Source: Alphaproteobacteria bacterium (GTDB lineage: Bacteria; Pseudomonadota; Alphaproteobacteria; Bin98). Taken from it: a stretch of DNA of 64,000 nucleotides. The position numbers and the translations under genes are program-made. Shown piece by piece: positions 9,180 to 39,646 of the stretch (positions are counted from its first letter, which is position 1; every line of letters starts with the position of its first letter). A model generated the notes under the pieces. It had not been told where the DNA came from. It ran no database searches and saw only the letters and a list, made by a program, of their open reading frames with translations. The stretch covers positions 57,046 through 121,045 of the forward strand of contig OZ253461.1 of the NCBI GenBank assembly GCA_965261615.1, read 5' to 3'.

Positions 9180-9186
9180 AATTCAC

Positions 9187-13904: not shown

Positions 13905-13962
13905 CTGGCTATACGGTCACAACTACACTCACCATCGGCATGACTAATATTTTCGCCCGCTC
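13905..13962 (-). pseudogene. Decayed 5' remnant of a secreted-protein paralog (signal-peptide fragment only)
   Basis: The reverse complement reads ...KILVMPMVSVVVTV*. The DNA caccatcggcatgactaatattttc resembles the start region of 9187..10314 (caccatcagcattacgaatactttcat). No downstream ORF follows. Confidence 0.3.
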
Positions 13963-14009
13963 ATAAGGAGTCCCCCCAATCATCAAATGGCTATATAGCG
14001 CCTCTATGA

Positions 14010-14591
14010 TTAATCGACAGCAGCCACATTGCTTTTAACATTGCCTCCGGCTTTAACACGCAAACGCATGTCCTCCACTTGACCTAATGCATATTGATTC
14101 AACTCATTTTCTGAGCGCACAAACACATAAGTAAACAGCTGAATCGCCACTTCACGCACCATCAACTCTCTGTCACTCCCTGATGCACAAAAGCTTTTCC
14201 AAGCAGCTTCCAAATGGCTCTCTCTATCTTGCAAAGATACAGGTTTGCCCAATGCCTTTATACAACAATCCAGTTTGGCGTGCAGCTCCTCTTCCTTTTT
14301 TTGAAGTTGCGCAGAACCCAGAGTGTCTGTTTCTATTTGCCGCACTAACGCCCAGGCCTCCTGAAACGTGCGGTATATTCTCTCCCTCTTAAATCTCTCC
14401 CGAAGCTCGTGTGGTGGCTCTACACATGCAGCACGAAAATCCCATGCACTCCCTATCTTAAGAAGAGCTGTAAAGTGGCCTGGGTAAACGTCGACTTTTT
14501 CACTGGTTCTAGCCGCACGAATGTCGTCCTCTATTGACGAGCATACAGCTGTCACTGTCCATACCATTAGCATCAATATTATTTTCATCAC
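14010..14591 (-). CDS. Hypothetical secreted protein; paralog of the C-terminal half of 11018..11998
   Basis: Signal peptide MMKIILMLMVWTVTAVCSS. GSAWDFRAACVEPPHELRERF matches ESAWDFRAACVESPQEMEQRF in 11018..11998. Confidence 0.5.
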   Translation of the reverse strand: MMKIILMLMVWTVTAVCSSIEDDIRAARTSEKVDVYPGHFTALLKIGSAWDFRAACVEPPHELRERFKRERIYRTFQEAWALVRQIETDTLGSAQLQKKEEELHAKLDCCIKALGKPVSLQDRESHLEAAWKSFCASGSDRELMVREVAIQLFTYVFVRSENELNQYALGQVEDMRLRVKAGGNVKSNVAAVD

Positions 14592-19967: not shown

Positions 19968-20013
19968 TGATAAAAACATAAATTCTGTAACGATAAAAAC
20001 ATAAATTCTGTAA
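19968..20013. repeat. 2 x 23-bp direct tandem repeat (gataaaaacataaattctgtaac) upstream of the first family-A gene
   Basis: 19968-19990 and 19991-20013 are identical apart from the last base. Confidence 0.7.
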
Positions 20014-20045
20014 TTCTAAAGGTTTCTGTGATATATTAAGTAACG

Positions 20046-20927
20046 ATGAATTTTATCCTTATTTTCACTCTATGCATATCAACCTACTCGATTGGCGCTA
20101 GTTCTCACGCAACCACTTCTATTTGGAATGAGTGGAGCGTGGAAGAGCTCGCCTACTTTTTGCAATTCAACAGTGCTATTGTAGAGAGTTGTTCAACCGC
20201 CTTGCAGTATAACTATAAAAGCACTCACGAGACAAGAATCAAGACAGCTCTAAGTCACTTACACCAGCAATACACCGAAGCAGTCGTATCTTGTGCTGAA
20301 GCATTTTATGACGCTTTATACCCCCAGGAGCACGCTAAGGCAAGTGACACAGAGCCTCTCAGCTATCAATCACTGCCCTCCTTCAGGAAAAGTGCGCTCT
20401 TCCAGAACGACAAGTTCCACCCCGAATTAGCCCGTTTAATAAAAAAGCATGCTAGCAAAGACGGCCCAACCTGGAACACCGACCTCCCCAGTGACTATTT
20501 TCCCTTCGCAATCCTCTCTGAAAATAGTTTTGGTAGCATTACACACATCACAATCCCACTTTATATTGCAAAAAAGGGCAGCCTTCAACAAACACACATA
20601 CACAAACATGACGCAGAGGTCTTGATCCCCACAGACAGCACATTAGCCTTAAGCAAACACGCACTACTGACCATAGAAACCGGAGCCATATTTATATTTG
20701 CAAAAATCGCCATTTCCCCTTTAACTAAAGCCCTGTCTCAGAAGCTATCTTTTACCGCATACGAAACAAAAAGATCGCCCACATCACCCTTAGAAGCACG
20801 TCCGCGTAGTCAACAGATAGAGCTCTGTCTCGCACAGCTCTATCAGCATCGCCCAAAGTCTTCTCCAAGCGCAACACCTGACCTTATAAGACCGGAGCCA
20901 CCCACAGCTACACTTATAAAATTTTAA
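20046..20927 (+). CDS. Family-A secreted paralog 1 (293 aa)
   Basis: Signal peptide MNFILIFTLCISTYSIGASSHA. Conserved blocks SCAEAFYDAL, LFQNDKFHPELARLIKKH, IPLYI, HIHKHDAEVLIPT, GAIFIFAKI, SFTAYETK, and a C-terminus IRPEPPTATLIKF. Confidence 0.7.
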   Translation: MNFILIFTLCISTYSIGASSHATTSIWNEWSVEELAYFLQFNSAIVESCSTALQYNYKSTHETRIKTALSHLHQQYTEAVVSCAEAFYDALYPQEHAKASDTEPLSYQSLPSFRKSALFQNDKFHPELARLIKKHASKDGPTWNTDLPSDYFPFAILSENSFGSITHITIPLYIAKKGSLQQTHIHKHDAEVLIPTDSTLALSKHALLTIETGAIFIFAKIAISPLTKALSQKLSFTAYETKRSPTSPLEARPRSQQIELCLAQLYQHRPKSSPSATPDLIRPEPPTATLIKF

Positions 20928-21084
20928 TAGATAATTTGGAAGGAAGCTACCCACCCTGTATACCCCCCAGATAAGGCCCCTACTGACAAGCCTTTTAGGT
21001 TTGAAAGCTTGCGCACACCGCCGGATATTCAGAGGCAGCGATAAAATAAGTTCCTTAACAGAGCTTTCTGTGATAAACTGCGTA

Positions 21085-22050
21085 ATGATGAATTTTACCC
21101 TTATTTTTACTCTATGCATATCAACCTACTCAATTGGCGCTAGTTCTCACACAACCACTTCTGTTTGGGATGGATGGGGCATAACAGAACTCGCAACCTT
21201 TTTGCGATGCAACAATCCTTGTCTCAAGTGTTTTTCAGCCGCCTTACAGTATAACTACAACAGTAAGCACGAAGACAATATCAAAGAGGCCCTAGGGCAC
21301 GTACACCGGCAGATCACCGAGGCGATAGAATCTTGCGCTAAAGCATTCTACAATGCTTTACGCCACCTCCCGGCCCCAAATACGGGAACCGCCTCTACTG
21401 AACACACCGCATTACTCTCCCGTCAACCATTGTCCGCCCATCAGTCATTGCCTGACCTCGAAGCAAGAGAGCTCTTCAAAAGTGGCATGATCCACCCAGA
21501 TTTAGATCGTTTAATAAAACAATATGCTAAAATACAGCCTTCTTGCTGGAACTCACGCCTCGACAACTTAACAAAATACTTTGAGTGCATAAAGTTCGAG
21601 CGAAGTAATGCTGAAAACATTTTACACATATCGCTTCCACTTTATATAGTAGACACGAACGACCATCAGTTAACACAAACACACATAAGCAAACGTGACG
21701 CAAACACCTTAATCCCCACAAACAGCACATTAGTTTTTAACTCAGACGCACTGCATGCCGCAAACACCGGAGCTATATTTGTATATGCAAAAATTACCGT
21801 TGACTCTCTATTGAGACTCTTGGGTAAGAAACTATCTTTTATCGCATATGAGACAAAAGCATCGCCGACATCACCTCTAAAAGCAAGACCAGAAGACGCA
21901 AAGTTTGCCCAAAGGATACAGGAAGAGTGCGAATACCTAACCCAACTCAGCACCCCCCCAAAGCACTCCCTCAAGGAAGCACCAGAGCAAGCATCGAACA
22001 CCACCAGGCAGGAGCCACCAACAGATACACTGATAGCCATTGACTCTTAG
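21085..22050 (+). CDS. Family-A secreted paralog 2
   Basis: MMNFTLIFTLCISTYSIGASSHT... with SCAKAFYNAL, LFKSGMIHPDLDRLIKQ, LPLYI, THISKRDANTLIPT, GAIFVYAKI, SFIAYETK, and a C-terminus TRQEPPTDTLIAIDS. Confidence 0.7.
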   Translation: MMNFTLIFTLCISTYSIGASSHTTTSVWDGWGITELATFLRCNNPCLKCFSAALQYNYNSKHEDNIKEALGHVHRQITEAIESCAKAFYNALRHLPAPNTGTASTEHTALLSRQPLSAHQSLPDLEARELFKSGMIHPDLDRLIKQYAKIQPSCWNSRLDNLTKYFECIKFERSNAENILHISLPLYIVDTNDHQLTQTHISKRDANTLIPTNSTLVFNSDALHAANTGAIFVYAKITVDSLLRLLGKKLSFIAYETKASPTSPLKARPEDAKFAQRIQEECEYLTQLSTPPKHSLKEAPEQASNTTRQEPPTDTLIAIDS

Positions 22051-22185
22051 ACAGGTTTCCCCCATACACCTCGTCCTGCAAGGGACGGCCTGTTCTCCAT
22101 GCGACATCTCGGGCATCACAACAAACCGCATATCCCAAAACACATATAAACTTGACTTTCTGTGCGTTTAAAGTATAATAAGGTT

Positions 22186-23151
22186 ATGATGAAATTTATG
22201 TTTATTGTTACACTACTCATTTCTACTTGCTCTGTCGCAGCTAGTATAGAGCCCCCCTCGTCAAAGTGGGAAGGGTGGGACCTACCAAATCTAGCTACAT
22301 TTTTAAAAACATTCGCAACTCCCGTTACGGCTCTTTCGCACGCCTTGGAGCATCCCAGTTTAGAGGCCTCCACTTCAGAGCAAGAGGGATGGGGTTTAGT
22401 CAATCTAACTACGAGTTTAAGACAATACGCACCTCCCATTAATTATCTGTTGGACTCACTGGGTTGCCCCAATCAGTCTAAGCACTCGAAAAACATAAAA
22501 GAAGCACTCACAGCTCAACTCCAGTGCACCACCCAGTATGTAGAATCCTGCGCCAAAGCATTCTATGCTTTATACCTCCAAACACAGTATAAAAACTCCT
22601 CTAATGAAACAACACCATTACTTACCGGTCAACCATTGATAGCCTTAGATGAGAGTGAACTCTTCAAAAATGCTGAGCTTCACCCAACACTCTCCAATTT
22701 AATTGAAGAGTACGCATGCCCAACGTTTACTGACGTCAAGCCACACCCCGCCCAATTAGGAGACCCCTTTCCTTGCGTAAGATACTGTAGCGATGCAAAG
22801 GCTCAAACCGCAAGCATCGGAGTCCCTCTGTATATATTAGAAAAACACATACTCTATCTACAAAAAACCCACCTAGATATACAAACGGCAGATGCCTTGA
22901 TTCCCACAAGCAGCCCTCCCGCAACTATCGAGAGCGCGCTCTGCTCAGTATACTCCGGTGCCGTATTTATATATGCAGTTGTCCCCATTGCGCCCCGCTC
23001 TTCCATATCGTTTATCGCATACGAAACACAACCTCATCCTGAATCACCTCTACATGAAATCTCTGAAAACCACACAGAATTCAGAAAAGCAATAGAGCGC
23101 TGTGTACAGTCCCAGCATCAGATTTATGTATCTCAATTGAACCACCAATAG
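22186..23151 (+). CDS. Family-A secreted paralog 3 (divergent)
   Basis: MMKFMFIVTLLISTCSVAAS... with SCAKAFYALY, LFKNAELHPTLSNLIEEY, VPLYI, GAVFIYAV, SFIAYETQ. Confidence 0.65.
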   Translation: MMKFMFIVTLLISTCSVAASIEPPSSKWEGWDLPNLATFLKTFATPVTALSHALEHPSLEASTSEQEGWGLVNLTTSLRQYAPPINYLLDSLGCPNQSKHSKNIKEALTAQLQCTTQYVESCAKAFYALYLQTQYKNSSNETTPLLTGQPLIALDESELFKNAELHPTLSNLIEEYACPTFTDVKPHPAQLGDPFPCVRYCSDAKAQTASIGVPLYILEKHILYLQKTHLDIQTADALIPTSSPPATIESALCSVYSGAVFIYAVVPIAPRSSISFIAYETQPHPESPLHEISENHTEFRKAIERCVQSQHQIYVSQLNHQ

Positions 23152-23347
23152 TTATACTTATCGGACTCTAATTGAATAGTCTGGGGCGTTTCCCCCCGTT
23201 TAATGGTGGGTACGCCCTAGATCAGGCTCCCACTGCCAAGCCTTTTTGATTTGAAAGCTTGCGCATGCTACCGAAAGGATGAGCAAATACAGCAAAAATA
23301 TAAACTAAGTAGGGGGCTAGCATTTTTTGTGATATAACTACTGTACG

Positions 23348-24187
23348 ATGAAATTTATACTTATATTTACACTATTCATATCAGGCTACTCTGTCGCAGC
23401 TAGTTCAGACGCATACTCTTCAGTGTGGACAGGATGGGGCGTCGCAGATCTCGCAACCTTTTTAAAATACAACAGTGGTTGTGTAAACAGTTTGTCAGTC
23501 GCCTTACAACATAAATATAACAGTGATCATGAATCAAACATCAAGGAAGCTCTAACGCACTTACACCAGCAATACACCGATGCAGTAGTGTCTTGCGCTA
23601 AAGCATTTTATGACTCTTTATTCCTCCAAGAGAAGACTACACTCAGCTACCAACCACTACCTTCCTTCAAGAAAAATGATCTTTTTAAAAACGACAAATT
23701 CCACCCGGACTTAGAGCGTTTAATAAAAAAACACAGCACAAAGAGTCCAGTGTGGAACCCTCGCCTCAACGAATTACAAGACTACTACCACCGATTAAGG
23801 GTCTATCGAAATACTTTGCGCGAGGTGACACACATCGAGATTCCACTTTATATAGAAAGCAAGAGCAACCATCAGTTAACGCACAGACACATAAGCAAAC
23901 GTGACGCAAGTGCCTTGAACCCGACATCAAGAACATTAGCTTTTACAAAAGATGCACAGCTTACCGCACACAACGGGGCTACATTTATATTTGCAAGAAT
24001 CGCCGTCCACCCTATGAGTTTTTCTCTGCGGTTTAAACGCCTTTCATTTACCGCATACGAAACACAATCTCAGCCTGAATCACCCCTAAAGGCAAGCCCA
24101 GAAGACATAGGGTTTTGCAAACTAGTCGCACAAGAGTGCGAAGCACTAGCGAAGCACAGCAAAACCACAAGTCGAATCTACAGATAG
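23348..24187 (+). CDS. Family-A secreted paralog 4
   Basis: MKFILIFTLFISGYSVAASSDA... with SCAKAFYDSL, LFKNDKFHPDLERLIKKH, IPLYI, RHISKRDASAL, GATFIFARI, SFTAYETQ. Confidence 0.7.
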   Translation: MKFILIFTLFISGYSVAASSDAYSSVWTGWGVADLATFLKYNSGCVNSLSVALQHKYNSDHESNIKEALTHLHQQYTDAVVSCAKAFYDSLFLQEKTTLSYQPLPSFKKNDLFKNDKFHPDLERLIKKHSTKSPVWNPRLNELQDYYHRLRVYRNTLREVTHIEIPLYIESKSNHQLTHRHISKRDASALNPTSRTLAFTKDAQLTAHNGATFIFARIAVHPMSFSLRFKRLSFTAYETQSQPESPLKASPEDIGFCKLVAQECEALAKHSKTTSRIYR

Positions 24188-24364
24188 GCACTTATAGGCA
24201 TTTAATTGGATAATTTGGGACATTTTCCCCCCGTTTAGTGGTGGGTACGCCCTAGATCAGGCTCCCATTGCCAAGCCTTTTAGCTTTGAAAGCTTCATAG
24301 GATGACAAGCACATCAAATACATTATGTGGACTTTTAGAGTGTTCTATGCTATAAGTTGTTACT

Positions 24365-25243
24365 ATGAAGCTGATCCTTATATTGACACTATTTATATCT
24401 ACCTATTCTATCGGCGCTAGTTCACACGCAGCCACTTCAGTTTGGAGTGGGTGGAACATAGAAGAGCTCGCCTCCTTTTTACAAAGCAAACAGGCTGTAC
24501 TAAAGAGTTGTTCAGCCGCCTTGCAGTATAACTATGAAAGTGATCACGGGCCAAACATCAAGGAAGCCCTAAGGCACTTACACAGGCAATACACCGAAGC
24601 CGTCGTATCTTGCGCTAAAGCATTTTATACTGCATGCACCCAAGAACAGGAGGGCAAATCTTCCACCACTCACAGCACGTCGTTACTCCCCCGCAAGTCA
24701 TTACCACGCTTAGAGGAAAAAGAACTCTTCAAAAATGGCAAGTTCCATCCCGCCTTAGCCCGCTTAATACAGGCACATGATATCCAAGAACACGAGTCTT
24801 GGAACGGGCGCCTCGACCACTTAACTGACCATTTCTCAGCCATGTCTTTCATTACAGATGGTTTTGACGACATTACGCACATCTGTATTCCACTTTACAT
24901 AATAGACAAGAGCAGCCACCGGTTAACGCAAACGCATATAAGCAAAAGTGACGCAAACATCTTGCTCTCCATAAAAAGCCCATTAGCCTTTAACAAAGAA
25001 GCGCTGCTTACCGCACACACCGGTGCCGTATTTATATATGCACAAATCGCCGTTAACTTTTGGCATAGAACCCTGTGTAAGCGCCTGTCGTTTATCGCAT
25101 ACGAAACACAACCTCATCCTGAATCACCTCTACAGGAAATCTCTGAAGACGACACAAATCGTCGCCAAGAAATAGAGAAAGAAGTCCAACATCTAAGAAA
25201 GATCAGAGACGCCTCAGAGCCACCCACAGATGCACTTAATTAA
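24365..25243 (+). CDS. Family-A secreted paralog 5
   Basis: MKLILILTLFISTYSIGASSHA... with SCAKAFYTAC, LFKNGKFHPALARLIQAH, IPLYI, THISKSDANIL, GAVFIYAQI, SFIAYETQ. Confidence 0.7.
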   Translation: MKLILILTLFISTYSIGASSHAATSVWSGWNIEELASFLQSKQAVLKSCSAALQYNYESDHGPNIKEALRHLHRQYTEAVVSCAKAFYTACTQEQEGKSSTTHSTSLLPRKSLPRLEEKELFKNGKFHPALARLIQAHDIQEHESWNGRLDHLTDHFSAMSFITDGFDDITHICIPLYIIDKSSHRLTQTHISKSDANILLSIKSPLAFNKEALLTAHTGAVFIYAQIAVNFWHRTLCKRLSFIAYETQPHPESPLQEISEDDTNRRQEIEKEVQHLRKIRDASEPPTDALN

Positions 25244-25284
25244 CTTCAGTTAGATTAAAATTTTCTGTGATATAATCTCACACG

Positions 25285-26235
25285 ATGAAATTTATACTCA
25301 TATTTACACTCTTCCTCTCAACTTATTCTATCGGTGCTAGTTCACATGCAGACGATTCTGTTTGGGAGGAATGGAGTGTAACAGAACTCGCCAATTTTTT
25401 GAGGGACAAAAGCAGTATGCTGAACTGCTTTTCAGTGGCCTTACAACGTAGCTATGCAAATGATCACGAGGATAATATCAAGCAAGCTCTGACACACCTG
25501 CATCAGAAACATACCCAAGCGTTAGAGTCGTGTGCTGGAGCGTTCTACCGTACTTTACTCCTCCAAAATCCAAATACGACAACAAACTCTTCTGCACACT
25601 CAACATTACTCCCCCGCAAACCACTGCCGCTCTTAGACGAAAGTGAGCTCTTCAAAAACGGTAAATTTCACCCCGATTTCGCTCGCTTAGTAAAAAAACA
25701 TTGCAGCAGAGAGCGCTCTACCTACAACACACGCCTTATCCACGAACAAGACTACCTGCCCTTCATTGCCTGCATCCGCAATATTTATGGCGAAATTATA
25801 TACATGGAAATCCCTCTTTATATAATAAACAAGAGCAGCCATCAATTCACACACACTCACATAAGCAAACGTAACGCAAAAACTTTAATCCCCAAAGAGG
25901 GCACACCGTCTTTTCTAAAAAGCGCTCTATCCACAACACACACCGGGGCCATATTTATATTTGCAAAAATCTCCTTTCGCTCTCTCTTTAACACTCTATC
26001 TTTTAGCGCATATGAAACAAAGGCATCACCTACTGCACGCCTCAAAGCACGACCAAAAGACAAGGAATTTAGCAAAACAATAGAGCAAGGGCTCGACTAT
26101 CTAGCAAAGATGTTAAAAAAAGCAGAAACATCGAGCCCTCAGAAACACCCAGGGCCTTCTCCCAGCACCACCTCTAAGAAAACACCTGACATCACAAGAC
26201 AAGAGCCACCAACAGGTGTACTTATAAACTTTTAG
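25285..26235 (+). CDS. Family-A secreted paralog 6
   Basis: MKFILIFTLFLSTYSIGASSHA... with SCAGAFYRTL, LFKNGKFHPDFARLVKKH, IPLYI, THISKRNAKTL, GAIFIFAKI, SFSAYETK, and a C-terminus ITRQEPPTGVLINF. Confidence 0.7.
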   Translation: MKFILIFTLFLSTYSIGASSHADDSVWEEWSVTELANFLRDKSSMLNCFSVALQRSYANDHEDNIKQALTHLHQKHTQALESCAGAFYRTLLLQNPNTTTNSSAHSTLLPRKPLPLLDESELFKNGKFHPDFARLVKKHCSRERSTYNTRLIHEQDYLPFIACIRNIYGEIIYMEIPLYIINKSSHQFTHTHISKRNAKTLIPKEGTPSFLKSALSTTHTGAIFIFAKISFRSLFNTLSFSAYETKASPTARLKARPKDKEFSKTIEQGLDYLAKMLKKAETSSPQKHPGPSPSTTSKKTPDITRQEPPTGVLINF

Positions 26236-26271
26236 TTGCCCCCCCCTTTTTCTCTGTGATACACTTATGCG

Positions 26272-27201
26272 ATGAAATTTATACTTATATTTACCCTATT
26301 CATATCAACCTATTCTATAGCCGCCAGTTCACACGCAAACGATTCTATTTGGGAGGGGTGGAGCACAACAGAAATCGCTTCCCTTTTAAGACGCACCATG
26401 CCTTGTGTAGACGCTGTTTCATCCGCCTTGCGGTATAACTATAAAAGTGATCATGAGACAAGCATCAAGAAAGCTCTAGAACACCTCCACCAGCAAAACA
26501 CCAAAATCGTAGAATCTTGTGCTCAAGCGCTCTACGAAACTTTACTTCTCCAAGAGCAAGCAAAGGCAAGCAAAACAACACCTCCCAGCAGCTATCAACC
26601 ACTGCCATCCTTCAAGAAAAGCGATCTCTTCAAAGCGGGCAAACTCCACCCCAGCTTATCTCGTTTCATAAAACAGCATGGGAACAAAGACACACATAAA
26701 TGGAACCCAAAACTCAACCACTTAAGAAACTATTTTAAGGTAGGGTTCACTCCAAACGCTAATGGCGAAATTATAGAAGTGGAACTCCCTCTTTATATAA
26801 TAAAAAAGAACGACTGTCAGTTAACGCAAACGCACATAAGCAAACGTGACGCAAACACCTTAATCTCCACAGACAGCACATTAGCCTTTGTCAAAGACGC
26901 TCTACAAACCACAGAAACAGGAGCCATATTTATATATGCTAAAATCACCCTTCAGCCTCTATTGAGACTGCTGAATGGAACCTGCTCTTTTTCCGCATAT
27001 GAAACAAAACCATCTCCCCTATCACGCCTAAAAGCACGCCCAAAAGACATACAATTTAGCAAAGAAATAGAGCAAGCGTGCGCAGATCTAGCAAAGATCA
27101 GCAAAAAAGAAATAAGTCGGCCCCCCAGCAGAACACCTGAGCCCACGACTGACGTCACAAGGCCAGAGCTACCAACCGGTATACTTATAACTTTTTGTTA
27201 G
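26272..27201 (+). CDS. Family-A secreted paralog 7
   Basis: MKFILIFTLFISTYSIAASSHA... with SCAQALYETL, LFKAGKLHPSLSRFIKQH, LPLYI, THISKRDANTL, GAIFIYAKI, SFSAYETK, and a C-terminus TRPELPTGILITFC. Confidence 0.7.
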   Translation: MKFILIFTLFISTYSIAASSHANDSIWEGWSTTEIASLLRRTMPCVDAVSSALRYNYKSDHETSIKKALEHLHQQNTKIVESCAQALYETLLLQEQAKASKTTPPSSYQPLPSFKKSDLFKAGKLHPSLSRFIKQHGNKDTHKWNPKLNHLRNYFKVGFTPNANGEIIEVELPLYIIKKNDCQLTQTHISKRDANTLISTDSTLAFVKDALQTTETGAIFIYAKITLQPLLRLLNGTCSFSAYETKPSPLSRLKARPKDIQFSKEIEQACADLAKISKKEISRPPSRTPEPTTDVTRPELPTGILITFC

Positions 27202-27230
27202 ATTTAAAATTTTCTGTGATACAGTACATC

Positions 27231-28160
27231 ATGAAATTTATACTTATATTTACCCTATTCATATCAACCTATTCTATCGGCGCTAGTTCACATGCAGCTA
27301 CTTCAGCCTGGGAAGGGTGGAGCGTAACAGAACTCGCAACATTTTTACAATACAACAGTCGTCGTATAAACGGCCTTTCAACTGCCTTACAATATAAATT
27401 TAACAGCACTCATGCGACAAACATCAAGGAAGCTCTAGCGAACTTGCACCGGCAATACACCGATGCGGTAGTGTCTTGCGCTAAAGCATTTTATGATGCT
27501 TTATTCCTCCAAGAAAAGACTGTACTCAGCTATCAACCACTACCTGCCTTCAAGAAAGATGATCTTTTTAAAAACGACAAATTCCACCCGGACTTAGAGC
27601 GTTTAATAAAAAAACACAGCACACAGAGCCCAATGTGGAACCCTTGCCTCGACGAATTACAAGACTACTTCAACCACGTAGGGGTACTCCATAATGACTC
27701 TCACGAGATAACATACATCGAAATTCCACTTTATATAGAAAGCAAGAGCAGCCATCAGCTAACACAAAAACATATAAGCAAACGTGACGTAAATGCCTTG
27801 AGCCCTACAGAACGCACATTAGCTTTTAACAAAGACGCTCTACGAACCACAGACACCGGCGCCGTATTTATATATGCAAAAATCGCGGTCCACCCTATGA
27901 AAATTCTGTTTAAGACCCTGTCTTTTATAGCATATGAAACAAAGCCATCTCCCACATCACCCCTAAAGGCACGCCCAAAAGACATGGCATTTTGCCAAAA
28001 AATGGAGAAAAAGTGCGCAGAGCTAGCAAAGCTCAGCAAAAAAATAAATGAGTCCGCCTCCCAGCAACAACCCGATCCTTCCTCAAAAAGCACAACCCCT
28101 GAGGAAACGTCTGACATCACAAGGCAGGAGCCACCAACAGGTATACTTGTAAACTTTTAG
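27231..28160 (+). CDS. Family-A secreted paralog 8
   Basis: MKFILIFTLFISTYSIGASSHA... with SCAKAFYDAL, LFKNDKFHPDLERLIKKH, IPLYI, KHISKRDVNAL, GAVFIYAKI, SFIAYETK, and a C-terminus ...KINESASQQQPDPSS...SDITRQEPPTGILVNF. Confidence 0.7.
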   Translation: MKFILIFTLFISTYSIGASSHAATSAWEGWSVTELATFLQYNSRRINGLSTALQYKFNSTHATNIKEALANLHRQYTDAVVSCAKAFYDALFLQEKTVLSYQPLPAFKKDDLFKNDKFHPDLERLIKKHSTQSPMWNPCLDELQDYFNHVGVLHNDSHEITYIEIPLYIESKSSHQLTQKHISKRDVNALSPTERTLAFNKDALRTTDTGAVFIYAKIAVHPMKILFKTLSFIAYETKPSPTSPLKARPKDMAFCQKMEKKCAELAKLSKKINESASQQQPDPSSKSTTPEETSDITRQEPPTGILVNF

Positions 28161-29300
28161 TTGGATAATCTGGGGCGTTATCCACCTTGTAATTAACAAG
28201 GTGGAGGCACCTTATATATGACCACACACTTACGGTTTTCATTTCACCCACTGCAAATGCAGAGACCCAACTATAGCCAAAACATAAACTAACTTGTCTT
28301 ACGGCCTGATCTATGATAATATCTCTCCATGATGCAACTTATACTTATATTTACCCTCTTCATATCAACCTATTCTGTGGCCGCCAGTTCACAGGAAGAC
28401 GGTTCTATTTGGGAGGGATGGAACACAGCAGATCTTGCCTCCTTTTTAAGACGCGTCGTGCCTTGTGTAGACGCTATTTCATCCGCCTTGCAGTATAACT
28501 ATAACAATAAGCATGAGCAACACATCAAGAAAGCTCTAACGCACCTCCACCAGCAAAACACCAAAGCCGTAGAGTCTTGTGCTCATGCGCTCTACGATGC
28601 TTTATTCCTCCAAGAGCAAGCCAAGGAAGGTGCAACAACACCTCTCAGCAGCTATCAACAACTGCCCTCCTTCAAGAAAAGTGAGCTCTTCAAAGCGGGC
28701 AAACTCCACCCCAGATTATCTCGTTTCATAAAACAGCATGGGAGCAACAAAAGACATCTGGGCAACCCACAACTCGACAGCTTAACGGACTATTTTTGTG
28801 GGGCATATTTCACTCCAAACGCCGCTGGCGAAATTATAGAAGTGGAAATCCCTCTTTATATAATAAAAAAGAACGACTGTCCATTAACGCAAACGCACAT
28901 AAGCACACACGACGCAAACACCTTAACCCCAGGCACATTAGTCTGGAACCAAGACGCTCTACTAACAACAGAAACCGGAGCCATATTTATATATGCAAAA
29001 ATCAACCTTCCACCTCTGTTGAGACTCTTTAGTGGAACCTGCTCTTTTGCTGCATATGAAACAAAACCATCTCCCACACCACGCCTAAAAGCAAGCCCAG
29101 AAGGCATAAAATTCAGCCAGAAAATAGAGCAAAAGTGCGCATATCTAGCAACGCTCAGCATAGAACAAAGATCAGCAGCACAAAGATCAATGAGTCGGCC
29201 CCCCAGCCACAACCAGACCCTTCCTCAAGAAGCATAACTCCTGAGCAAACGTCTGACATCACAAGGCAGGAGCCACCAACAGGTATACTTATAGAATTTT
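28161..29300. repeat. Copy 1 of a ~1.14 kb near-identical tandem duplication (intergenic element plus a family-A gene)
   Basis: 28161-29300 is ~99% identical to 29301-~30440. The two begin ttggataatctggggcgttatccaccttgtaattaacaaggtgg and ttgaataatctggggcgttatccacctttaattaacaaggtgg respectively. Confidence 0.8.
28329..29237 (+). CDS. Family-A secreted paralog 9, C-terminus frameshifted relative to its duplicate
   Basis: MMQLILIFTLFISTYSVAASSQ... The protein is identical to the first module of 29470..32319 until ~29160. There a ~16-nt deletion inside the 84-bp linker repeat shifts the frame. The ORF then ends ...SMSRPPSHNQTLPQEA*, while the canonical family C-terminus (SDITRQEPPTGILIEF*) lies in another frame and ends at ~29301. 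Confidence 0.6.
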   Translation: MMQLILIFTLFISTYSVAASSQEDGSIWEGWNTADLASFLRRVVPCVDAISSALQYNYNNKHEQHIKKALTHLHQQNTKAVESCAHALYDALFLQEQAKEGATTPLSSYQQLPSFKKSELFKAGKLHPRLSRFIKQHGSNKRHLGNPQLDSLTDYFCGAYFTPNAAGEIIEVEIPLYIIKKNDCPLTQTHISTHDANTLTPGTLVWNQDALLTTETGAIFIYAKINLPPLLRLFSGTCSFAAYETKPSPTPRLKASPEGIKFSQKIEQKCAYLATLSIEQRSAAQRSMSRPPSHNQTLPQEA

Positions 29301-30440
29301 AGTTGAATAATCTGGGGCGTTATCCACCTTTAATTAACAAGGTGGAGACACCTTATATATGACCACACACTTACGGTTTTCATTTCACCCACTGCAAATG
29401 CAGAGACCCAACTATAGCCAAAACATAAACTAACTTGTCTTACGGCCTGATCTATGATAAAATCTCCCCATGATGCAACTTATACTTATATTTACCCTCT
29501 TCATATCAACCTATTCTGTGGCCGCCAGTTCACAGGAAGACGGTTCTATTTGGGAGGGATGGAACACAGCAGATCTTGCCTCCTTTTTAAGACGCGTCGT
29601 GCCTTGTGTAGACGCTATTTCATCCGCCTTGCAGTATAACTATAACAATAAGCATGAGCAACACATCAAGAAAGCTCTAACGCACCTCCACCAGCAAAAC
29701 GCCAAAGCCGTAGAGTCTTGTGCTCATGCGCTCTACGATGCTTTATTCCTCCAAGAGCAAGCCAAGGAAGGTGCAACAACACCTCTCAGCAGCTATCAAC
29801 AACTGCCCTCCTTCAAGAAAAGTGAGCTCTTCAAAGCGGGCAAACTCCACCCCAGATTATCTCGTTTCATAAAACAGCATGGGAGCAACAAAAGACATCT
29901 GGGCAACCCACAACTCGACAGCTTAACGGACTATTTTTGTGGGGCATATTTCACTCCAAACGCCGCTGGCGAAATTATAGAAGTGGAAATCCCTCTTTAT
30001 ATAATAAAAAAGAACGACTGTCCATTAACGCAAACGCACATAAGCACACACGACGCAAACACCTTAACCCCAGGCACATTAGTCTGGAACCAAGACGCTC
30101 TACTAACAACAGAAACCGGAGCCATATTTATATATGCAAAAATCAACCTTCCACCTCTGTTGAGACTCTTTAGTGGAACCTGCTCTTTTGCTGCATATGA
30201 AACAAAACCATCTCCCACACCACGCCTAAAAGCAAGCTCAGAAGGCATAAAATTCAGCCAGAAAATAGAGCAAAATTGCGCATATCTAGCAACGCTCAGC
30301 ACAAAGATAAATGAGTCAGCTCCCCAGCAACAACCAGACCCTTCAAGCATAGAGCAAGAGTGTGCAGACCAAAAGATCAGCAGCACAAAGATCAATGAGT
30401 CGGCCCCCCAGCCACAACCAGACTCTTCTATTTGGGCGGG
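29301..30440. repeat. Copy 2 of the ~1.14 kb tandem duplication
   Basis: See copy 1 at 28161..29300. A third, partial copy follows at ~30428-31230 (tctatttgggcgggatggaacacagcagatcttgcc... matches 28403 onward). Confidence 0.8.
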
Positions 30441-32319
30441 ATGGAACACAGCAGATCTTGCCTCCTTTTTAAGACGCGTCGTGCCTTGTGTAGACGCTAT
30501 TTCATCCGCCTTGCAGTATAACTATAACAATAAGCATGAGCAACACATCAAGAAAGCTCTAACGCACCTCCACCAGCAAAACGCCAAAGCCGTAGAGTCT
30601 TGTGCTCATGCGCTCTACGATGCTTTATTCCTCCAAGATAAGGAAGGTGCAGCAACACCTCTCAGCGGCCATCAAACACTGCTATCCCTCAAGAAAAGTG
30701 AGCTCTTCAAAGCGGGCAAACTCCACCCCAGATTATCTCGTTTCATAAAACAGCATGGGAGCAACAAAAGACATCTGGGCAACCCACAACTCGACAGCTT
30801 AACGGACTATTTTTGTGGGGCATATTTCACTCCAAACGCCGCTGGCGAAATTATAGAAGTGGAAATCCCTCTTTATATAATAAAAAAGAACGACTGTCCA
30901 TTAACGCAAACGCACATAAGCACACACGACGCAAACACCTTAACCCCAGGCACATTAGTCTGGAACCAAGACGCTCTACTAACAACAGAAACCGGAGCCA
31001 TATTTATATATGCAAAAATCAACCTTCCACCTCTGTTGAGACTCTTTAGTGGAACCTGCTCTTTTGCTGCATATGAAACAAAACCATCTCCCACACCACG
31101 CCTAAAAGCAAGCCCAGAAGGCATAAAATTCAGCCAGAAAATAGAGCAAAATTGCGCATATCTAGCAACGCTCAGCACAAAGATAAATGAGTCAGCTCCC
31201 CAGCAACAACCAGACCCTTCAAGCATAGAGCAAGAGTGTGCAGACCAAAAGATCAGCAGCACAAAGATCAATGAGTCGGCCCCCCAGCCACAACCAGACT
31301 CTTCAAGCATAGAGCAAGAGTGTGCAGACCAAAAGATCAGTAGCACAAAGATAAATGAGTCGGCCCCCCAGCCACAACCAGACTCTTCAAGCATAGAGCA
31401 AGAGTGTGCAGACCAAAAGATCAGTAGCACAAAGATAAATGAGTCGGCCCCCCAGCAACAACCAGACCCTTCCTCAAGCACAGCCACCTCAGACTGGGAC
31501 GGGTGGAACATCGCAGACCTCGCCACCTTTTTACAGTGCCACCAACCAACTGCCGCCAACCTTGCAAGGGCATCTAAAAAAAGCTATACAAGTGATCACT
31601 GGAATTATATCGCATACAACCTGACCGCAATACACCAGAGGTTCTCTCGAGCGATATCCTCCTGTGCCCAAGCATTCTATGATGCTTTACAAGACCAATC
31701 TGCGCCACTGCCTGTTTTAAAGCACGATGAACTGTACAAAAATGGTAAGCTTCACCCCGCTTTATCCCGTTTAGTAAAAAAACATGCCAACCGAAGGTAT
31801 AAGATTGGCAATTCACGCACCCGCCGACCGGGAGATCTATTCTCAGTCCTGTATTCCAATCGCAATGGTTGGGGTCTAACCTCACACATATGCATCCCCC
31901 TTTATATATATAAAAGCGATAGCCTTCAATTAACAAGCCCCCACATTAGCAAGTATCAGGAAGCAACCTTACTACCCCCCAGAGGCCCTATTGCTTCAGA
32001 GGCCAATGCACTACTCACGGCTCACGATAGCGCCCTTTTTATATATGCAGAAATCCCTCTTCTCCCCCTATTGGGACCTGTGCGGCTTGTCGCATATCAA
32101 ACAAAACAACAGCCAGGATCACGCTTAACAAACAATGCTGACCACCAAAAATTCACACAACGTATAGAACAGTCTATCCGCGAAATCCCTCAAACGTCCG
32201 CTGCCTCTCATTCAGATCTATTGCCACACCCACTAGCAGCACAAACGCGCACACTGCTGTCTCCACACCAACTAGCAGCAAACGCTATCCGCGCCACATA
32301 TACGCCTGGACAAGTCTGA
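29470..32319 (+). CDS. Tri-modular family-A fusion protein (949 aa): three family-A modules joined by 28-aa repeat linkers
   Basis: Module 1 is nearly identical to 28329..29237. Module 2 (from IWAGWNTADLASFL, no signal peptide) is nearly identical again. 84-bp (28-aa) tandem linker repeats SIEQECADQKISSTKINESAPQPQPDSS follow. Module 3 is divergent (SDWDGWNIADLATFL...SCAQAFYDAL...LYKNGKLHPALSRLVKKH...IPLYIY...PHISKYQEATL...ALFIYAEI...VAYQTK). Confidence 0.6.
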   Translation: MMQLILIFTLFISTYSVAASSQEDGSIWEGWNTADLASFLRRVVPCVDAISSALQYNYNNKHEQHIKKALTHLHQQNAKAVESCAHALYDALFLQEQAKEGATTPLSSYQQLPSFKKSELFKAGKLHPRLSRFIKQHGSNKRHLGNPQLDSLTDYFCGAYFTPNAAGEIIEVEIPLYIIKKNDCPLTQTHISTHDANTLTPGTLVWNQDALLTTETGAIFIYAKINLPPLLRLFSGTCSFAAYETKPSPTPRLKASSEGIKFSQKIEQNCAYLATLSTKINESAPQQQPDPSSIEQECADQKISSTKINESAPQPQPDSSIWAGWNTADLASFLRRVVPCVDAISSALQYNYNNKHEQHIKKALTHLHQQNAKAVESCAHALYDALFLQDKEGAATPLSGHQTLLSLKKSELFKAGKLHPRLSRFIKQHGSNKRHLGNPQLDSLTDYFCGAYFTPNAAGEIIEVEIPLYIIKKNDCPLTQTHISTHDANTLTPGTLVWNQDALLTTETGAIFIYAKINLPPLLRLFSGTCSFAAYETKPSPTPRLKASPEGIKFSQKIEQNCAYLATLSTKINESAPQQQPDPSSIEQECADQKISSTKINESAPQPQPDSSSIEQECADQKISSTKINESAPQPQPDSSSIEQECADQKISSTKINESAPQQQPDPSSSTATSDWDGWNIADLATFLQCHQPTAANLARASKKSYTSDHWNYIAYNLTAIHQRFSRAISSCAQAFYDALQDQSAPLPVLKHDELYKNGKLHPALSRLVKKHANRRYKIGNSRTRRPGDLFSVLYSNRNGWGLTSHICIPLYIYKSDSLQLTSPHISKYQEATLLPPRGPIASEANALLTAHDSALFIYAEIPLLPLLGPVRLVAYQTKQQPGSRLTNNADHQKFTQRIEQSIREIPQTSAASHSDLLPHPLAAQTRTLLSPHQLAANAIRATYTPGQV
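30301..30425. repeat. 84-bp coding tandem repeat, ~1.5 copies (linker between modules 1 and 2)
   Basis: This DNA encodes KINESAPQQQPDPSSIEQECADQKISSTKINESAPQPQPDSS. Confidence 0.7.
31178..31478. repeat. 84-bp coding tandem repeat, ~3.5 copies (linker between modules 2 and 3)
   Basis: Repeated agcatagagcaagagtgtgcagaccaaaagatcag(c/t)agcacaaagat(c/a)aatgagtcggccccccagccacaaccagactcttca, with units starting near 31221, 31305 and 31389. Confidence 0.75.
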
Positions 32320-32438: not shown

Positions 32439-33140
32439 TTATTCTGCAGGAACGCCATTCTCCCACCAGTTCTTATATTTGCTTTTCTCATCCTTTCCCA
32501 TATGCCGAAGTATCTTCTGAGCGGTGACTTTACCACCCCGACTAGCATATGGCTCAAGAGTCTCTTGCGCATACTGAAGTCGCCACAAACCAAGCTCACA
32601 CTTCTTAGCATACTCTTCACCAGCTGCACAAACACCAGGATCCAGCGGTTCCCCTTTAGTAGCAGCCTGAGCCCCCTTTATAACATCATCATAATCACAC
32701 AAAAAAGAATGCTCTTTTGCTAGCATCAACCGAAAATCTGCCAAATCTTTTGCTAGTACACCGCCAAACCCAGTCTTTAATTGACTTAACAAGCTAAAAG
32801 CCTGTAGGCGGCCTAAGTTTCCTTCCTCATAGATTTTCTGGGCAGAGTCTTTGTCTATATCCTTGTCAAGCACGCTCACATATAGCCGTCTTAAGCTAAC
32901 GGCACTTTCTGTTACAGAACGAGCTGACTCCCATTTTTCACATAACTTATTATAGGCATCAACTACTTCCTTATCGGCCCACCTTAGGTTGATTTCCAGG
33001 CTTTTAAGAACACCATACACTTCCGCAGTCGTGCTCACTTTAAACGCCCCCGCACCAGCGGGGCGCGCCTGATCAGACGCAAGAGCGCTCAAAACACACA
33101 AAAAAACACTGATCCTCCCCCACATAAACTCTGCTAACAT
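32439..33140 (-). CDS. Hypothetical secreted protein (233 aa)
   Basis: Hydrophobic N-terminus (ISVFLCVLSALASDQA). No motifs recognised. Confidence 0.45.
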   Translation of the reverse strand: MLAEFMWGRISVFLCVLSALASDQARPAGAGAFKVSTTAEVYGVLKSLEINLRWADKEVVDAYNKLCEKWESARSVTESAVSLRRLYVSVLDKDIDKDSAQKIYEEGNLGRLQAFSLLSQLKTGFGGVLAKDLADFRLMLAKEHSFLCDYDDVIKGAQAATKGEPLDPGVCAAGEEYAKKCELGLWRLQYAQETLEPYASRGGKVTAQKILRHMGKDEKSKYKNWWENGVPAE

Positions 33141-33214
33141 ATCATAGGTTGGGGAGGCAGCGCGATACTCAGAAGTTATCAGTCTGCTTTAAGGCCGGCA
33201 CTGCTCTTTCAATC

Positions 33215-34102
33215 CTATTCAGCTGGGCCAGTTCGTCGCAAAAGCCTATCCGCACAGAAGCCCATCTTTTTCACGTCCCAAATCAATGCACGAACATTCA
33301 CCCACGCTGCATCCTTATTATGTTCAACATCCACCTTACTCAAGTGGCCCTTTTTCGACGCAATATACTCATCCCAATTATATCGCAAACAAAGAGCCAA
33401 AGAACACTCATAGTCCCTAAGCTCCTTATACATCTGCAGGTGCTGCAAAATTGTTACCGCTTCCTCTGGCGCACTGTACACGCCTACTTTTACTCTGTAG
33501 TTTGGCGTTTTTTGTATGCTCACATCACAAACCTCTCGCAAAGCATCCCCTACCTTTTCTTTAAAACCCTGAAGGTTTCGCAAACGTACGTTCAACATCT
33601 CCGGCAAAGGCTCTAGACCTTCAACGTCTCTTAATGCAAACGCATTACTCGCCCACTTCACACACCACAAGACTCGGTTGATTTCCTGATTAACAGCCCG
33701 CAACACACATTGCAGAACCATTGTTTGAGTCGCCTCATCCTGCAAATAAACAACCGACCCCTCCGCATCTTTTGGCATAGTGAAAAAAGCATCCCCCAGT
33801 AGCGCAATTTGATCGTCACTTAAAGCATCCCCCAATAGCGCAGTTTGCCGGTTACTTGGCGTCGCCCCTTCATTCTGGCAGATCTCCTCCAGGCCTTGTA
33901 TTGTTAAACCAACGGCTTTCCACCACTTTTGACACATGTCTGTCTCATCATTGTTGCTCACACCTTGCTCGTGCAACCTAGCCAAGCCTTGTTGCTTAAG
34001 TTTACGATTTATTGAACTTAAAAGGCTCTCATCTTCTACACAGTTTCCCCGGCACGACACAAACATAATACAAATCAAAAATAATTGTCTCAAGAAATTC
34101 AT
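33215..34102 (-). CDS. Hypothetical secreted protein (295 aa)
   Basis: Signal peptide MNFLRQLFLICIMFVSCRGNC. No motifs recognised. Confidence 0.45.
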   Translation of the reverse strand: MNFLRQLFLICIMFVSCRGNCVEDESLLSSINRKLKQQGLARLHEQGVSNNDETDMCQKWWKAVGLTIQGLEEICQNEGATPSNRQTALLGDALSDDQIALLGDAFFTMPKDAEGSVVYLQDEATQTMVLQCVLRAVNQEINRVLWCVKWASNAFALRDVEGLEPLPEMLNVRLRNLQGFKEKVGDALREVCDVSIQKTPNYRVKVGVYSAPEEAVTILQHLQMYKELRDYECSLALCLRYNWDEYIASKKGHLSKVDVEHNKDAAWVNVRALIWDVKKMGFCADRLLRRTGPAE

Positions 34103-38452: not shown

Positions 38453-39646
38453 CTATACAAGCAAAATACTCCAGTTTTTCTGATAGCCCGCCAGTATGCC
38501 TCTTGGCCCCACAACATGCTTTGAAAGGTCTTTACTCATAACAAACGCCAGAGAACCATCCAAACTCTTCCCTGACCGAGCCACAACCTCCTGCCATGTC
38601 CTTACCAGATCGCCCTGCACTAAAAGATTTACATCCTTAAACACGTTAGGTGTACTCCAGCCTCTTTGCTGATCCACAAAAAAGAGTAGCATCTCACCTT
38701 CCTCACACCCTGACCAAAAGGAAAGCTCTTGACTCGCCGGCACTAAACCAAAGCTGTTGCGCAAAATAGCTACTTGCACAGGCTCATAGCGATACTGAGT
38801 AAGCGGTACACTTATCTTTTTTTCGACACCATCACGCTTTACTATAAACTCAAATTGAGTAAGGTGCGTTGATACAGGGATTTGCCAAGCCTCGCTGATT
38901 TTTTTACCATTTACTTGCAAAATTACATCCCCCACTTCCAGCTCAGGTGGTGCAAATCTTTCTTTTGCAGATAAAATCACCTCTTTTTCTAATTTGCACG
39001 CCTTATTTTTGCTGAAAGAAAGAAACGCACAGCTAGGCAGTACATATTCTTTTTGCTCAACATATGTGCCCTCTACTTTAGCAATTGCACGTTTTAACAA
39101 CGCACGCATGTGCGCTTGCAACACACACACGCCTCCACTAACAACCATAGCAAACACCTCGTCACGCACATTACACAATAGTGTTCCTAAAGAAAACTGA
39201 CCGCTTGTTTCATGCAAATATACAGTTGCTAAGGGACTTAGCATAATAGGCACAGAAGGATCGCGACTCACTACAGCCTGCCTCCCCTTTAATGTTGTTC
39301 CATCCTCGCTAATAGACACTGGATGTAATAACTCGTCAGACGAACCTAAGTAAGCGCTCTGCACATTTGACAGCGCTTCCTCTTTTTTCACCCGCAGAAT
39401 ACAAATACCATGCAAACGATCTACCGCCACAACGTCACAAGGCGATTTGTTCACAGAAAAGCTATCACAACCAAAAGGCCCTTGGTTGTAAGGCGCCAAC
39501 ACCAAACCTTTGTTTTTATCTACACACACCCCAGAAAAAAATAAGTGCCCTCCATTACGGTCATGCTGACTTTGAATCAAAACTAATGATCGAGCCGCCC
39601 ATAACGTCCCTGAACATAAAAAAAGTAACAAAATTTTCTTAATCAT
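38453..39646 (-). CDS. HtrA/DegP-like paralog P1 (trypsin fold + PDZ); catalytic triad degenerate
   Basis: Signal/lipobox-like N-terminus MIKKILLLFLCSG. The Asp region (VVAVDRLHGICILRV, cf. DLAVLRV) is kept, but the His block and the GxSGG block are lost (HETSGQFSLGTLLCNVRDEVFAMVVSGG). PDZ-like LEVGDVILQVNGKKI. Confidence 0.6.
   Translation of the reverse strand: MIKKILLLFLCSGTLWAARSLVLIQSQHDRNGGHLFFSGVCVDKNKGLVLAPYNQGPFGCDSFSVNKSPCDVVAVDRLHGICILRVKKEEALSNVQSAYLGSSDELLHPVSISEDGTTLKGRQAVVSRDPSVPIMLSPLATVYLHETSGQFSLGTLLCNVRDEVFAMVVSGGVCVLQAHMRALLKRAIAKVEGTYVEQKEYVLPSCAFLSFSKNKACKLEKEVILSAKERFAPPELEVGDVILQVNGKKISEAWQIPVSTHLTQFEFIVKRDGVEKKISVPLTQYRYEPVQVAILRNSFGLVPASQELSFWSGCEEGEMLLFFVDQQRGWSTPNVFKDVNLLVQGDLVRTWQEVVARSGKSLDGSLAFVMSKDLSKHVVGPRGILAGYQKNWSILLV

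Follow-up and report, generated by a model that had tools for sequence, protein, structure and literature searches.

What are ten adjacent, mutually related genes doing in a small alphaproteobacterial genome when no sequence profile and no solved structure recognises their products? This question is raised by positions 20046..32319 of the 64,000-nucleotide stretch of contig OZ253461.1 analysed here (the window). A first-pass annotation, made by a model from the letters alone, had described the locus as a tandem array of secreted proteins, called family A, and had likened its evolutionary pattern to that of surface-antigen or effector families in obligate intracellular bacteria. Our preferred reading, to which we assign a probability of about 0.55, is that family A is a diversified, lineage-restricted family of Sec-exported, non-enzymatic binding modules, probably devoted to interactions with a host or with the envelope.

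Ten tandem genes and two outlying genes form one family

The open reading frame (ORF) list of the window contains ten intact ORFs at 20046..32319, all co-oriented on the + strand, and their span of 12.3 kb amounts to 19% of the window, in line with the figure of about 20% given earlier. Three starts called by the ORF finder were moved to the conserved methionine, which gives the starts listed in Table 1. In the alignment, all ten array proteins (10/10) share a hydrophobic N-terminus, MKFILIFTLFISTYSIGASSHA or a variant of it, together with the short sequence blocks that the annotation had picked out. When a family A hidden Markov model (HMM) was run against the six-frame translation of the window, every member scored an expectation value (E) of 1e-103 to 1e-143, and the best scores beyond the members were 8e-4 and then 1e-2; membership scores are therefore far beyond chance. 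The two further members predicted within 54885..56629, A11 and A12, proved real by the same search (E 1e-103 and 1e-105). The ten array genes hold 12 family domains, and with A11 and A12 the window holds 14.

Two parts of the earlier description needed correction. The size of about 300 amino acids holds for nine of the array genes, and the tenth, A10, is a 949-amino-acid fusion of three domains. The "invariant scaffold" was overstated: conserved core blocks are indeed shared, but the listed blocks are consensus strings, and the number of invariant alignment columns among the 12 members is 22. Between the blocks the sequences have diverged strongly, as had been noted, and pairwise identity in the family alignment is 32-68%, the sole exception being A9 and domain a of A10 at 92%.

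The family is confined to one lineage and matches no known family or fold

Two proteins that bracket A11 and A12, B1 and B2, are 34-36% identical to each other and are remote relatives of family A: alignment of the two profiles with hhalign gave a probability of 94.7% and an E of 6e-8 over columns 59-258. An exhaustive HMMER search of 1.84e9 cluster representatives with the family A profile returned 9 proteins in total, comprising five members from the window, three proteins (P0010-P0012) that are 25-30% identical and encoded elsewhere on the same 1,465,401-bp contig, and one protein (P0013) from a 1,990-bp metagenome scaffold in the European Nucleotide Archive (ENA; sample PANK22-1/SAMN12291685). 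Since a second, partial member lies directly behind P0013 on its scaffold, the distant branch is tandem too. A word-indexed search found a second scaffold of the same sample that carries an intact orthologue of A2 (L001/P0002), with 86-87% identical nucleotides and 77-78% identical amino acids. The prefix of the sample name may stand for the sponge metagenomes of Pankey et al. 2022. Word-indexed searches with the family A, A+B and B profiles otherwise returned same-genome proteins and one metagenome protein only, and scans of GTDB representative genomes and of Joint Genome Institute (JGI) metagenome contigs found no relatives of the family. Families A and B are thus restricted to one lineage, and in the searches made a single metagenome sample is the sole source of related sequences outside this genome. 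Within the 1.47-Mb genome there are at least 19 copies of the domain, counting 14 A domains, 2 B proteins and 3 distant paralogues.

The annotation had recognised no homologue, and this held in Pfam, NCBIfam, PDB sequences, solved folds and the 1.84e9 representatives. Single members had no match in Pfam or NCBIfam; at permissive E, no weak match recurred across 18 superfamily members. PADLOC and PHROGs gave scattered single-member matches only, at E 0.004 or worse, and the family profile had 0 matches among PDB sequences at E up to 1. A Foldseek search of the PDB gave a best E of 0.3 and a template-modelling (TM) score of at most 0.2; judged by the predicted structure, the lack of a known fold holds for solved structures only. 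Clear homology to a characterised family was found neither by profile nor by fold searches.

Predicted architecture of family A proteins

By inspection, the family N-terminus has the n-, h- and c-regions expected of a substrate of Sec signal peptidase (SPase) I, with a short n-region, a hydrophobic stretch of 12-15 residues and small residues at -3/-1 (IGASS or VAASS). The N-terminal export signal claimed for the family is thus conserved, and its ratio of nonsynonymous to synonymous substitution rates (dN/dS) is 0.11. The internal domains of the A10 fusion lack it; since the fusion keeps only one, the export signal would be needed once per polypeptide.

An AlphaFold2 model of A1, built on a 12-member alignment, had a predicted local distance difference test score (pLDDT) of 76.8 and a predicted TM score (pTM) of 0.75. 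It places a helical hairpin (residues 32-53 and 62-101) after an unstructured stretch (1-23) and, beyond a low-confidence linker, a mixed alpha/beta domain at about 120-240, a C-terminal helix (253-267) and a disordered tail; residues 1-23 and 272-293 have a pLDDT below 50. The description of these proteins as helical therefore fits the long hairpin, and the other half is modelled as a mixed alpha/beta domain. The annotation had proposed a structure prediction with an all-alpha or alpha/beta fold and a conserved cysteine in mind; a hairpin plus alpha/beta domain was obtained, and the cysteine, Cys83, is invariant in family A only.

Between the alpha/beta domain and the C-terminus lies a linker, or stalk, rich in Pro, Ser, Thr and Gln and predicted to be disordered. 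About half of the members then end in a conserved hydrophobic tail, D-I-T-R-Q-E-P-P-T-G-I-L-I-x-F-COOH, which has been lost in A3, A4, A9, A10, A11 and A12. A tail ending in Phe is similar both to class II PDZ ligands and to the signature found at the C-terminus of outer-membrane proteins. Sorting by sortase (LPXTG) or PEP-CTERM was considered and rejected: E-P-P-T-G is followed by just five residues (ILINF) and the stop, too short for either signal, and there is no transmembrane segment. A lipoprotein processed by SPase II was likewise rejected, as no lipobox is present and the cysteine of A1 and A2 (FTLCIS) is out of context and replaced by Phe or Leu in the others.

Invariant residues are few. 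Across 18 superfamily sequences they are A36, L39 and H61, and among the 12 family A members of the window His61, Ser82-Cys83 and His125-Pro126 are invariant as well. Cys83 is replaced in P0013, B1 and B2, and His125 in P0010-P0013, B1 and B2. His61 is modelled as the cap at the start of helix 2, and Cys83 follows in that helix 22 residues further on, about 30 A away by helix geometry.

A constrained core with fast-evolving segments

Whole-gene dN/dS was estimated by the method of Nei and Gojobori (NG86), and 20-codon windows were averaged over eight core paralogues. Synonymous divergence (dS) between copies was 0.5-1.4. Older paralogue pairs had dN/dS values of 0.39-0.62; the ratio was 0.78 for A9/A10a, 0.97 for A7/A9 and 1.02 for A9/A10b, and for the orthologous pair A2/L001 it was 0.56 at a dS of 0.21. 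Since every copy is open, with no internal stops, and since dN/dS is below 1 for the older pairs and for the A2/L001 pair, all copies are probably functional genes. Family A dN/dS lies far above that of typical bacterial housekeeping genes, a comparison drawn from general knowledge without an orthologous housekeeping control here.

Along the protein, the signal peptide has the lowest dN/dS (0.11, as above), the conserved blocks have values of 0.24-0.36, and values of 0.67-1.0 are reached in A1 residues 31-60 (the distal hairpin), 91-117 (the linker) and 138-169 (the loop and first strand of the alpha/beta domain). Window dS was 0.5-1.1 throughout, signal peptide included. Because dS in the signal peptide (0.83) is as high as elsewhere, gene conversion is ruled out as the source of its identity, and selection at the protein level has kept it. 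The fold core and the signal peptide are under purifying selection. The comparison of paralogues that the annotation had proposed thus yielded a purifying core with fast segments, and no window clearly above 1. Diversifying selection on family A is possible, and the elevated dN/dS fits relaxed constraint equally well.

Duplication, fusion and truncation are visible in the array

A birth-and-death pattern had been proposed for the array, and its traces can be read directly: one recent duplicate with 92% identity, a fusion of three domains, a tail put out of frame, and spacers that are homologous to one another. A10 has a single signal peptide and then three family domains, which are linked by repeats of a 28-amino-acid unit, SSIEQECADQKISSTKINESAPQPQPD. 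Its domains a and b are 97% identical, and domain c is 35% identical to them in the family alignment, a divergence like that of any other paralogue; the starts of domains b and c (SSIWAGW and TSDWDGW) coincide exactly with the predicted mature N-terminus. In A9, the close relative of domain a, a 16-nucleotide deletion within the linker repeat shifts the frame, so that the ancestral C-terminal tail is lost. That tail can still be read in another frame, which scores weakly with the family HMM and which blastn matches to the 3' end of L001. In A3 the W..GW/helix-1 segment is partly duplicated within the gene, as the alignment and two HMM stretches show, and a tail remnant, EPPIVILIGL*, is present in another frame. 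Since the longer spacers are homologous to each other, the unit of duplication is a gene with its spacer.

A promoter-like motif precedes most of the family genes

Alignment of the regions upstream of the family genes, and only this alignment, brought out a conserved motif, (T)TCTGTGATAnnnT, that has the form of an extended -10 element (TGnTAnnnT) and ends 5-9 nucleotides before the ATG. The strict pattern precedes 8/10 array genes and A12; in A4 (23326..) and A5 the motif ends in a base other than T, and A3 has TTGACT-16-TATAAT instead (22152..22179, ending 6 nucleotides before the ATG). No upstream motif was found for A11, which starts 6 nucleotides downstream of B1. The motif is kept despite spacers of 29-41 nucleotides from A5 to A8, and no Shine-Dalgarno sequence was found upstream of any family gene. 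With a promoter-like motif of its own, each family gene would form a separate transcription unit. A generic scan of the array for sigma-70 promoters and terminators performed no better than on shuffled sequences.

The TGnTAnnnT pattern also occurs on the - strand before unrelated genes, the malic enzyme gene among them (starts 13623, 19768, 36657 and 46291), and the metagenome homologues have a plain -10-like hexamer 5-6 nucleotides before the ATG and no Shine-Dalgarno sequence (L001 40-70; L082 515-540 and 1405-1432). This distribution suggests that leaderless or near-leaderless mRNAs may be a general promoter style of the lineage. Directly upstream of the A1 motif, at 19969..20013, lie two copies of a perfect 23-nucleotide direct repeat, GATAAAAACATAAATTCTGTAAC, and its AAAACATAAAYT part recurs about 35-45 nucleotides upstream of several other family genes.

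Some spacers contain stem-loops. The one after A8 (28171..28214, + strand) has a folding energy of -22.9 kcal/mol (z -4.9), and homologous structures follow A3 (23179..23222; -27.8 kcal/mol, z -5.1) and the ancestral stop of A9 (29313..29355; -18.8 kcal/mol, z -4.3). After A1 and A4 they are degenerate, and no spacer stem-loop has a U-tract.

Weighing the explanations

We propose that family A and its remote branch B expanded by tandem duplication in a small-genome alphaproteobacterium. A member would be built from a cleavable signal peptide, a helical hairpin, an alpha/beta domain, a disordered linker and, optionally, a hydrophobic tail. Transcription of each gene from its own extended -10 element near the ATG would give a leaderless or nearly leaderless mRNA, and the product would be exported to the periplasm and then probably onward to the cell surface or the medium. 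There the proteins would bind ligands of the host or of the envelope, and the variable segments would give the copies different specificities or make them antigenically diverse. We favour such exported binding modules because of the single export signal, the hydrophobic core, the variable surface segments, the stalk, the optional tail, the lack of a conserved triad, the lineage restriction, and the ongoing duplication, fusion and truncation. Surface-antigen, adhesin and Sec-delivered effector families follow the same evolutionary logic, and family A may act as surface antigens or effectors.

Several points weigh against this interpretation. None of the 20-codon windows averaged over paralogue pairs exceeds a dN/dS of 1, and the variable segments may be merely unconstrained loops. 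The AlphaFold2 model was based on 12 paralogues only, and the alpha/beta half modelled alone scored lower (pLDDT 69.5). The signal peptide was called by eye, and in several members the n-region lacks a positive charge. The window revealed no route by which the proteins could pass from the periplasm to the surface, and the host-associated lifestyle is deduced from genome size and gene content.

Known systems resemble family A in part. The annotation had set family A apart from the OMP1/MSP2/P44 type, and rightly so: an hmmscan of all members found no match to PF01617 (Surface_Ag_2) at E up to 5, and the AlphaFold2 model contains no barrel. Like OMP-1/MSP2/P44 of the Anaplasmataceae, family A has clustered or tandem paralogues in a small alphaproteobacterial genome, a signal peptide, and a framework flanking hypervariable segments. 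However, those proteins are beta-barrel porins, whereas the family A model is a soluble helical hairpin with an alpha/beta domain. They also rely on an expression site and truncated silent cassettes, in contrast with family A copies, which are full-length, have their own start and signal peptide and, except for A11, their own promoter-like motif. Borrelia PFam54 (CspA/BBA68-BBA73) likewise comprises about ten exported paralogues of 250-300 amino acids with one fold and diverged surfaces, and its different copies bind different host ligands. These are plasmid-encoded lipoproteins, whereas family A is chromosomal, possesses an alpha/beta domain as well as a stalk and a tail, and lacks a lipobox Cys; no structural similarity to solved PFam54/CspA-like members was found. 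Sec-delivered effectors of Candidatus Liberibacter and phytoplasmas, bacteria without dedicated systems for injecting effectors, are lineage-specific, fast-evolving orphans, many per small genome, and like family A they are recognisable only by the Sec signal. Most of them are below 200 amino acids and mutually unrelated, whereas here one domain of about 250 amino acids has been amplified at least 19 times. The marks of HlyD/AcrA periplasmic adaptors (a lipoyl-inserted alpha-hairpin, a beta-barrel and a HlyD profile match) were absent.

Other functions would account for some of the same observations. The proteins might be lineage-specific structural or housekeeping components of the envelope, such as periplasmic scaffolds or proteins associated with the outer membrane, with copy number providing dosage or stage-specific isoforms. 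In favour of this, every copy is intact and, except at A11, equipped with a promoter-like motif; the Phe-ending tail, which in our own reading resembles the outer-membrane-protein signature or PDZ-bound peptides, and the six HtrA/PDZ-like paralogues 6 kb away point in the same direction. Neighbouring copies with 32-68% identity and dN/dS of 0.4-1.0 are nevertheless unlike dosage copies, the tail is dispensable, as its six losses show, and no other sequenced alphaproteobacterium among those searched has the family, so that we consider an envelope-structural role unlikely. Our estimate is somewhat lower for a stockpile of periplasmic immunity proteins or inhibitors that would neutralise toxins or host enzymes such as lysozyme, proteases or lipases. 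The immunity arrays of type VI secretion systems (T6SS) and polymorphic toxins share with family A the signal peptides, tandem diverged paralogues with fast-evolving surface segments, a lack of enzymatic motifs or catalytic signature, and typically orphan status. On the other hand, a Pro/Ser/Thr stalk, a conserved tail and a three-domain fusion would be atypical of such arrays, PADLOC found nothing, and more than 16 kb of a 1.47-Mb genome would be an unusual outlay on immunity. The neighbours of both clusters are exported orphans and housekeeping genes, among which Pfam and NCBIfam recognised no toxin, T6SS, Rhs, CDI-type (contact-dependent inhibition) or secretion-system gene.

A secreted Cys/His hydrolase or metal-dependent enzyme using His61, Cys83 and His125 is suggested by the invariance of His61, Ser82-Cys83 and His125-Pro126 within family A, but is very unlikely in our view: clear homologues have replaced Cys83 or His125, the modelled distance of about 30 A separates His61 from Cys83 along one helix, and no enzyme family was matched by sequence or fold. 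Given the lack of profile matches and these replacements, family A does not belong to a known type of enzyme and is probably not catalytic. Finally, the array might be evolutionary debris, left by the recent amplification of a selfish or neutral segment and drifting towards pseudogenes, as the young pairs with dN/dS near 1 (0.78, 0.97 and 1.02), the frameshifted tail of A9, the tail remnant of A3 and the degenerate stem-loops in some spacers could indicate. We regard this as the most improbable of the explanations, since the ten array ORFs and four outliers have stayed open over about 270-950 codons despite a dS of 0.5-1.4, the signal peptide (0.11) and core blocks (about 0.3) are constrained, the A2 orthologue is intact in a second organism, and no transposase, integrase or tRNA lies near the array.

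The binding-module reading can be extended into a more elaborate picture, which we offer as a long shot. Family A would then be a new fold displayed at the surface by its stalk and tail (Phi-x-Phi-COOH, usually Phe), the tail being read either by the outer-membrane assembly machinery or by the co-expanded set of six HtrA/PDZ-like paralogues in a lineage-specific system of display or processing; with leaderless transcription from the lagging strand, it would constitute a host-cell recognition repertoire in a marine-invertebrate-associated alphaproteobacterium. The resemblance of the tail to a PDZ ligand is intriguing because of those paralogues, which lie at 38453..46303.

Features of the array and its surroundings

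The coordinates of the family genes and associated features are collected in Table 1.

Table 1. Family A and B genes and associated features in the window, with related metagenome scaffolds (signal peptides, export and domain layouts are predicted; aa, amino acids)
Feature	Position	Strand	Length	Description
A1	20046..20927	+	293 aa	ORF; HMM E 1e-126; member modelled by AlphaFold2; signal peptide, helical hairpin, alpha/beta domain, Pro/Ser/Thr linker, C-terminal tail ...RPEPPTATLIKF
A2	21085..22050	+	321 aa	tail ...RQEPPTDTLIAIDS
A3	22186..23151	+	321 aa	most diverged array member; two HMM stretches
A4	23348..24187	+	279 aa	without C-terminal tail
A5	24365..25243	+	292 aa	shortened tail ...EPPTDALN
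A6	25285..26235	+	316 aa	tail ...TRQEPPTGVLINF
A7	26272..27201	+	309 aa	tail ...TRPELPTGILITFC
A8	27231..28160	+	309 aa	tail ...TRQEPPTGILVNF
A9	28329..29237	+	302 aa	recent duplicate of A10 domain a
A9 ancestral C-terminus remnant	29102..29302	+		out of frame; ...KISSTKINESAPQPQPDPSSRSITPEQTSDITRQEPPTGILIEF; also given as ...DITRQEPPTGILIEF
A10	29470..32319	+	949 aa	three-domain in-frame fusion
A10 domain a	29470..30423	+		only signal peptide of the fusion; HMM stretch 5-300
A10 domain b	30424..31476	+		no signal peptide; starts SSIWAGW; HMM stretch 319-592; linker repeats after
84-nucleotide tandem repeat	31173..31472	+		3.6 copies, 95% matches; encodes the 28-aa SSIEQECADQKISSTKINESAPQPQPD linker units
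A10 domain c	31477..32319	+		diverged; different tail; HMM stretch 671-948
B1	53772..54878	+	368 aa	predicted exported remote homologue of family A; weak family A HMM match
A11	54885..55712	+	275 aa	outlying family A member; HMM E 5e-103
A12	55814..56629	+	271 aa	outlying family A member; TGATATAAT 5 nucleotides before ATG
B2	56820..57848	+	342 aa	predicted exported remote homologue of family A
Upstream motif, example (A1)	20025..20037	+		(T)TCTGTGATAnnnT
Strict upstream motif, starts	20029, 21071, 25268, 26257, 27217, 28314, 29455, 55792 (approximate, A12)	+		TGnTAnnnT
L001, L082				ENA ERZ23496358, PANK22-1_SAMN12291685 scaffolds 54314 and 14163

Homopolymer tracts (C6 or longer, or A9) are frequent in the array, which holds 13/22 of those in the window (20963..31980), all of them poly-C. 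They are not independent of each other, because most lie at homologous linker-repeat or spacer positions. Examples are a C7 tract at 21953..21959 and a C8 tract at 26239..26246; the latter separates the stop of A6 from the -10-like motif of A7 and could vary in length. Antisense ORFs of 118-228 amino acids occur on the - strand at 21666..22040, 27755..28120, 28856..29212, 29997..30449 and 30873..31559, opposite the 3' halves of A2, A8, A9 and A10 at homologous positions; they are probably a by-product of skewed composition and paralogy.

Recognised genes of the window encode L21, TolQ, TolB, an M16 peptidase, tyrosyl-tRNA synthetase (TyrRS), RsmD, malic enzyme, a Tim44-like protein, Smr, DksA, a small, predicted exported phospholipase D (PLD), exonuclease III (ExoIII) and a release factor. 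The genome is placed in the Alphaproteobacteria by its Tim44-like protein, which we take to be a typically alphaproteobacterial marker, and by TyrRS, which is 43-49% identical to assorted Alphaproteobacteria among the matches listed for GTDB genomes. Among about 15 billion proteins, none shares 90% identity with TolQ, the M16 peptidase, malic enzyme, Smr, DksA or ExoIII, each of which is a singleton at that level, which means that no close relative has been sequenced. For a genome of 1.47 Mb, the obligate-intracellular lifestyle implied by the first-pass annotation is plausible.

The GC (guanine plus cytosine) content of the window is 44%, and GC skew is unusually strong and uniform: irrespective of the strand that the genes occupy, each 2-kb bin has a value of -0.15 to -0.35. 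The C-rich strand, presumably the lagging one, carries all 14 family A and B genes, and about 83% of the remaining coding sequence, by a tally of ORF coordinates, lies on the opposite strand. Recent horizontal transfer of the array was considered and rejected, since it does not stand out from its surroundings in GC content or GC skew.

Predicted exported orphan proteins in small paralogue families take up about half of the window. On the - strand, BLAST groups the proteins at 8586 and 10422, those at 9187, 11018 and 14010 (region 8586..14591), and those at 60272, 61024 and 62265 (60272..62720) into such families; the proteins at 57958 and 58455 (57958..59246) share a 37-amino-acid N-terminus with 95% identity, and the immediate neighbours of the array at 32439 and 33215 (32439..34102) both end in ...PAE. 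The six consecutive, predicted exported paralogues at 38453..46303, 6 kb downstream of the array, are about 400-470 amino acids long; trypsin-like and PDZ domains are clear in one, three match PDZ or DegP/HtrA-like profiles weakly and two have no match, and together they look like an expanded, largely degenerate HtrA-like family. On the + strand, 48794..49324 encodes the PLD-family protein, which has 176 amino acids and an N-terminal hydrophobic signal; in size and type it resembles the small phospholipase D of Rickettsia.

Meaning for the lineage

Many host-restricted bacteria handle their hosts by means of tandem families of exported proteins, so that the array as a phenomenon is nothing unusual. 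The novelty lies in the protein, whose domain of about 250 residues neither sequence profiles nor solved structures recognise. The apparent near-leaderless promoter layout makes a simple, testable prediction about where transcription starts. If family A proteins are surface-exposed or secreted, they would offer a new fold for structural study and would be the obvious first handles on the host interaction of an uncultured lineage.

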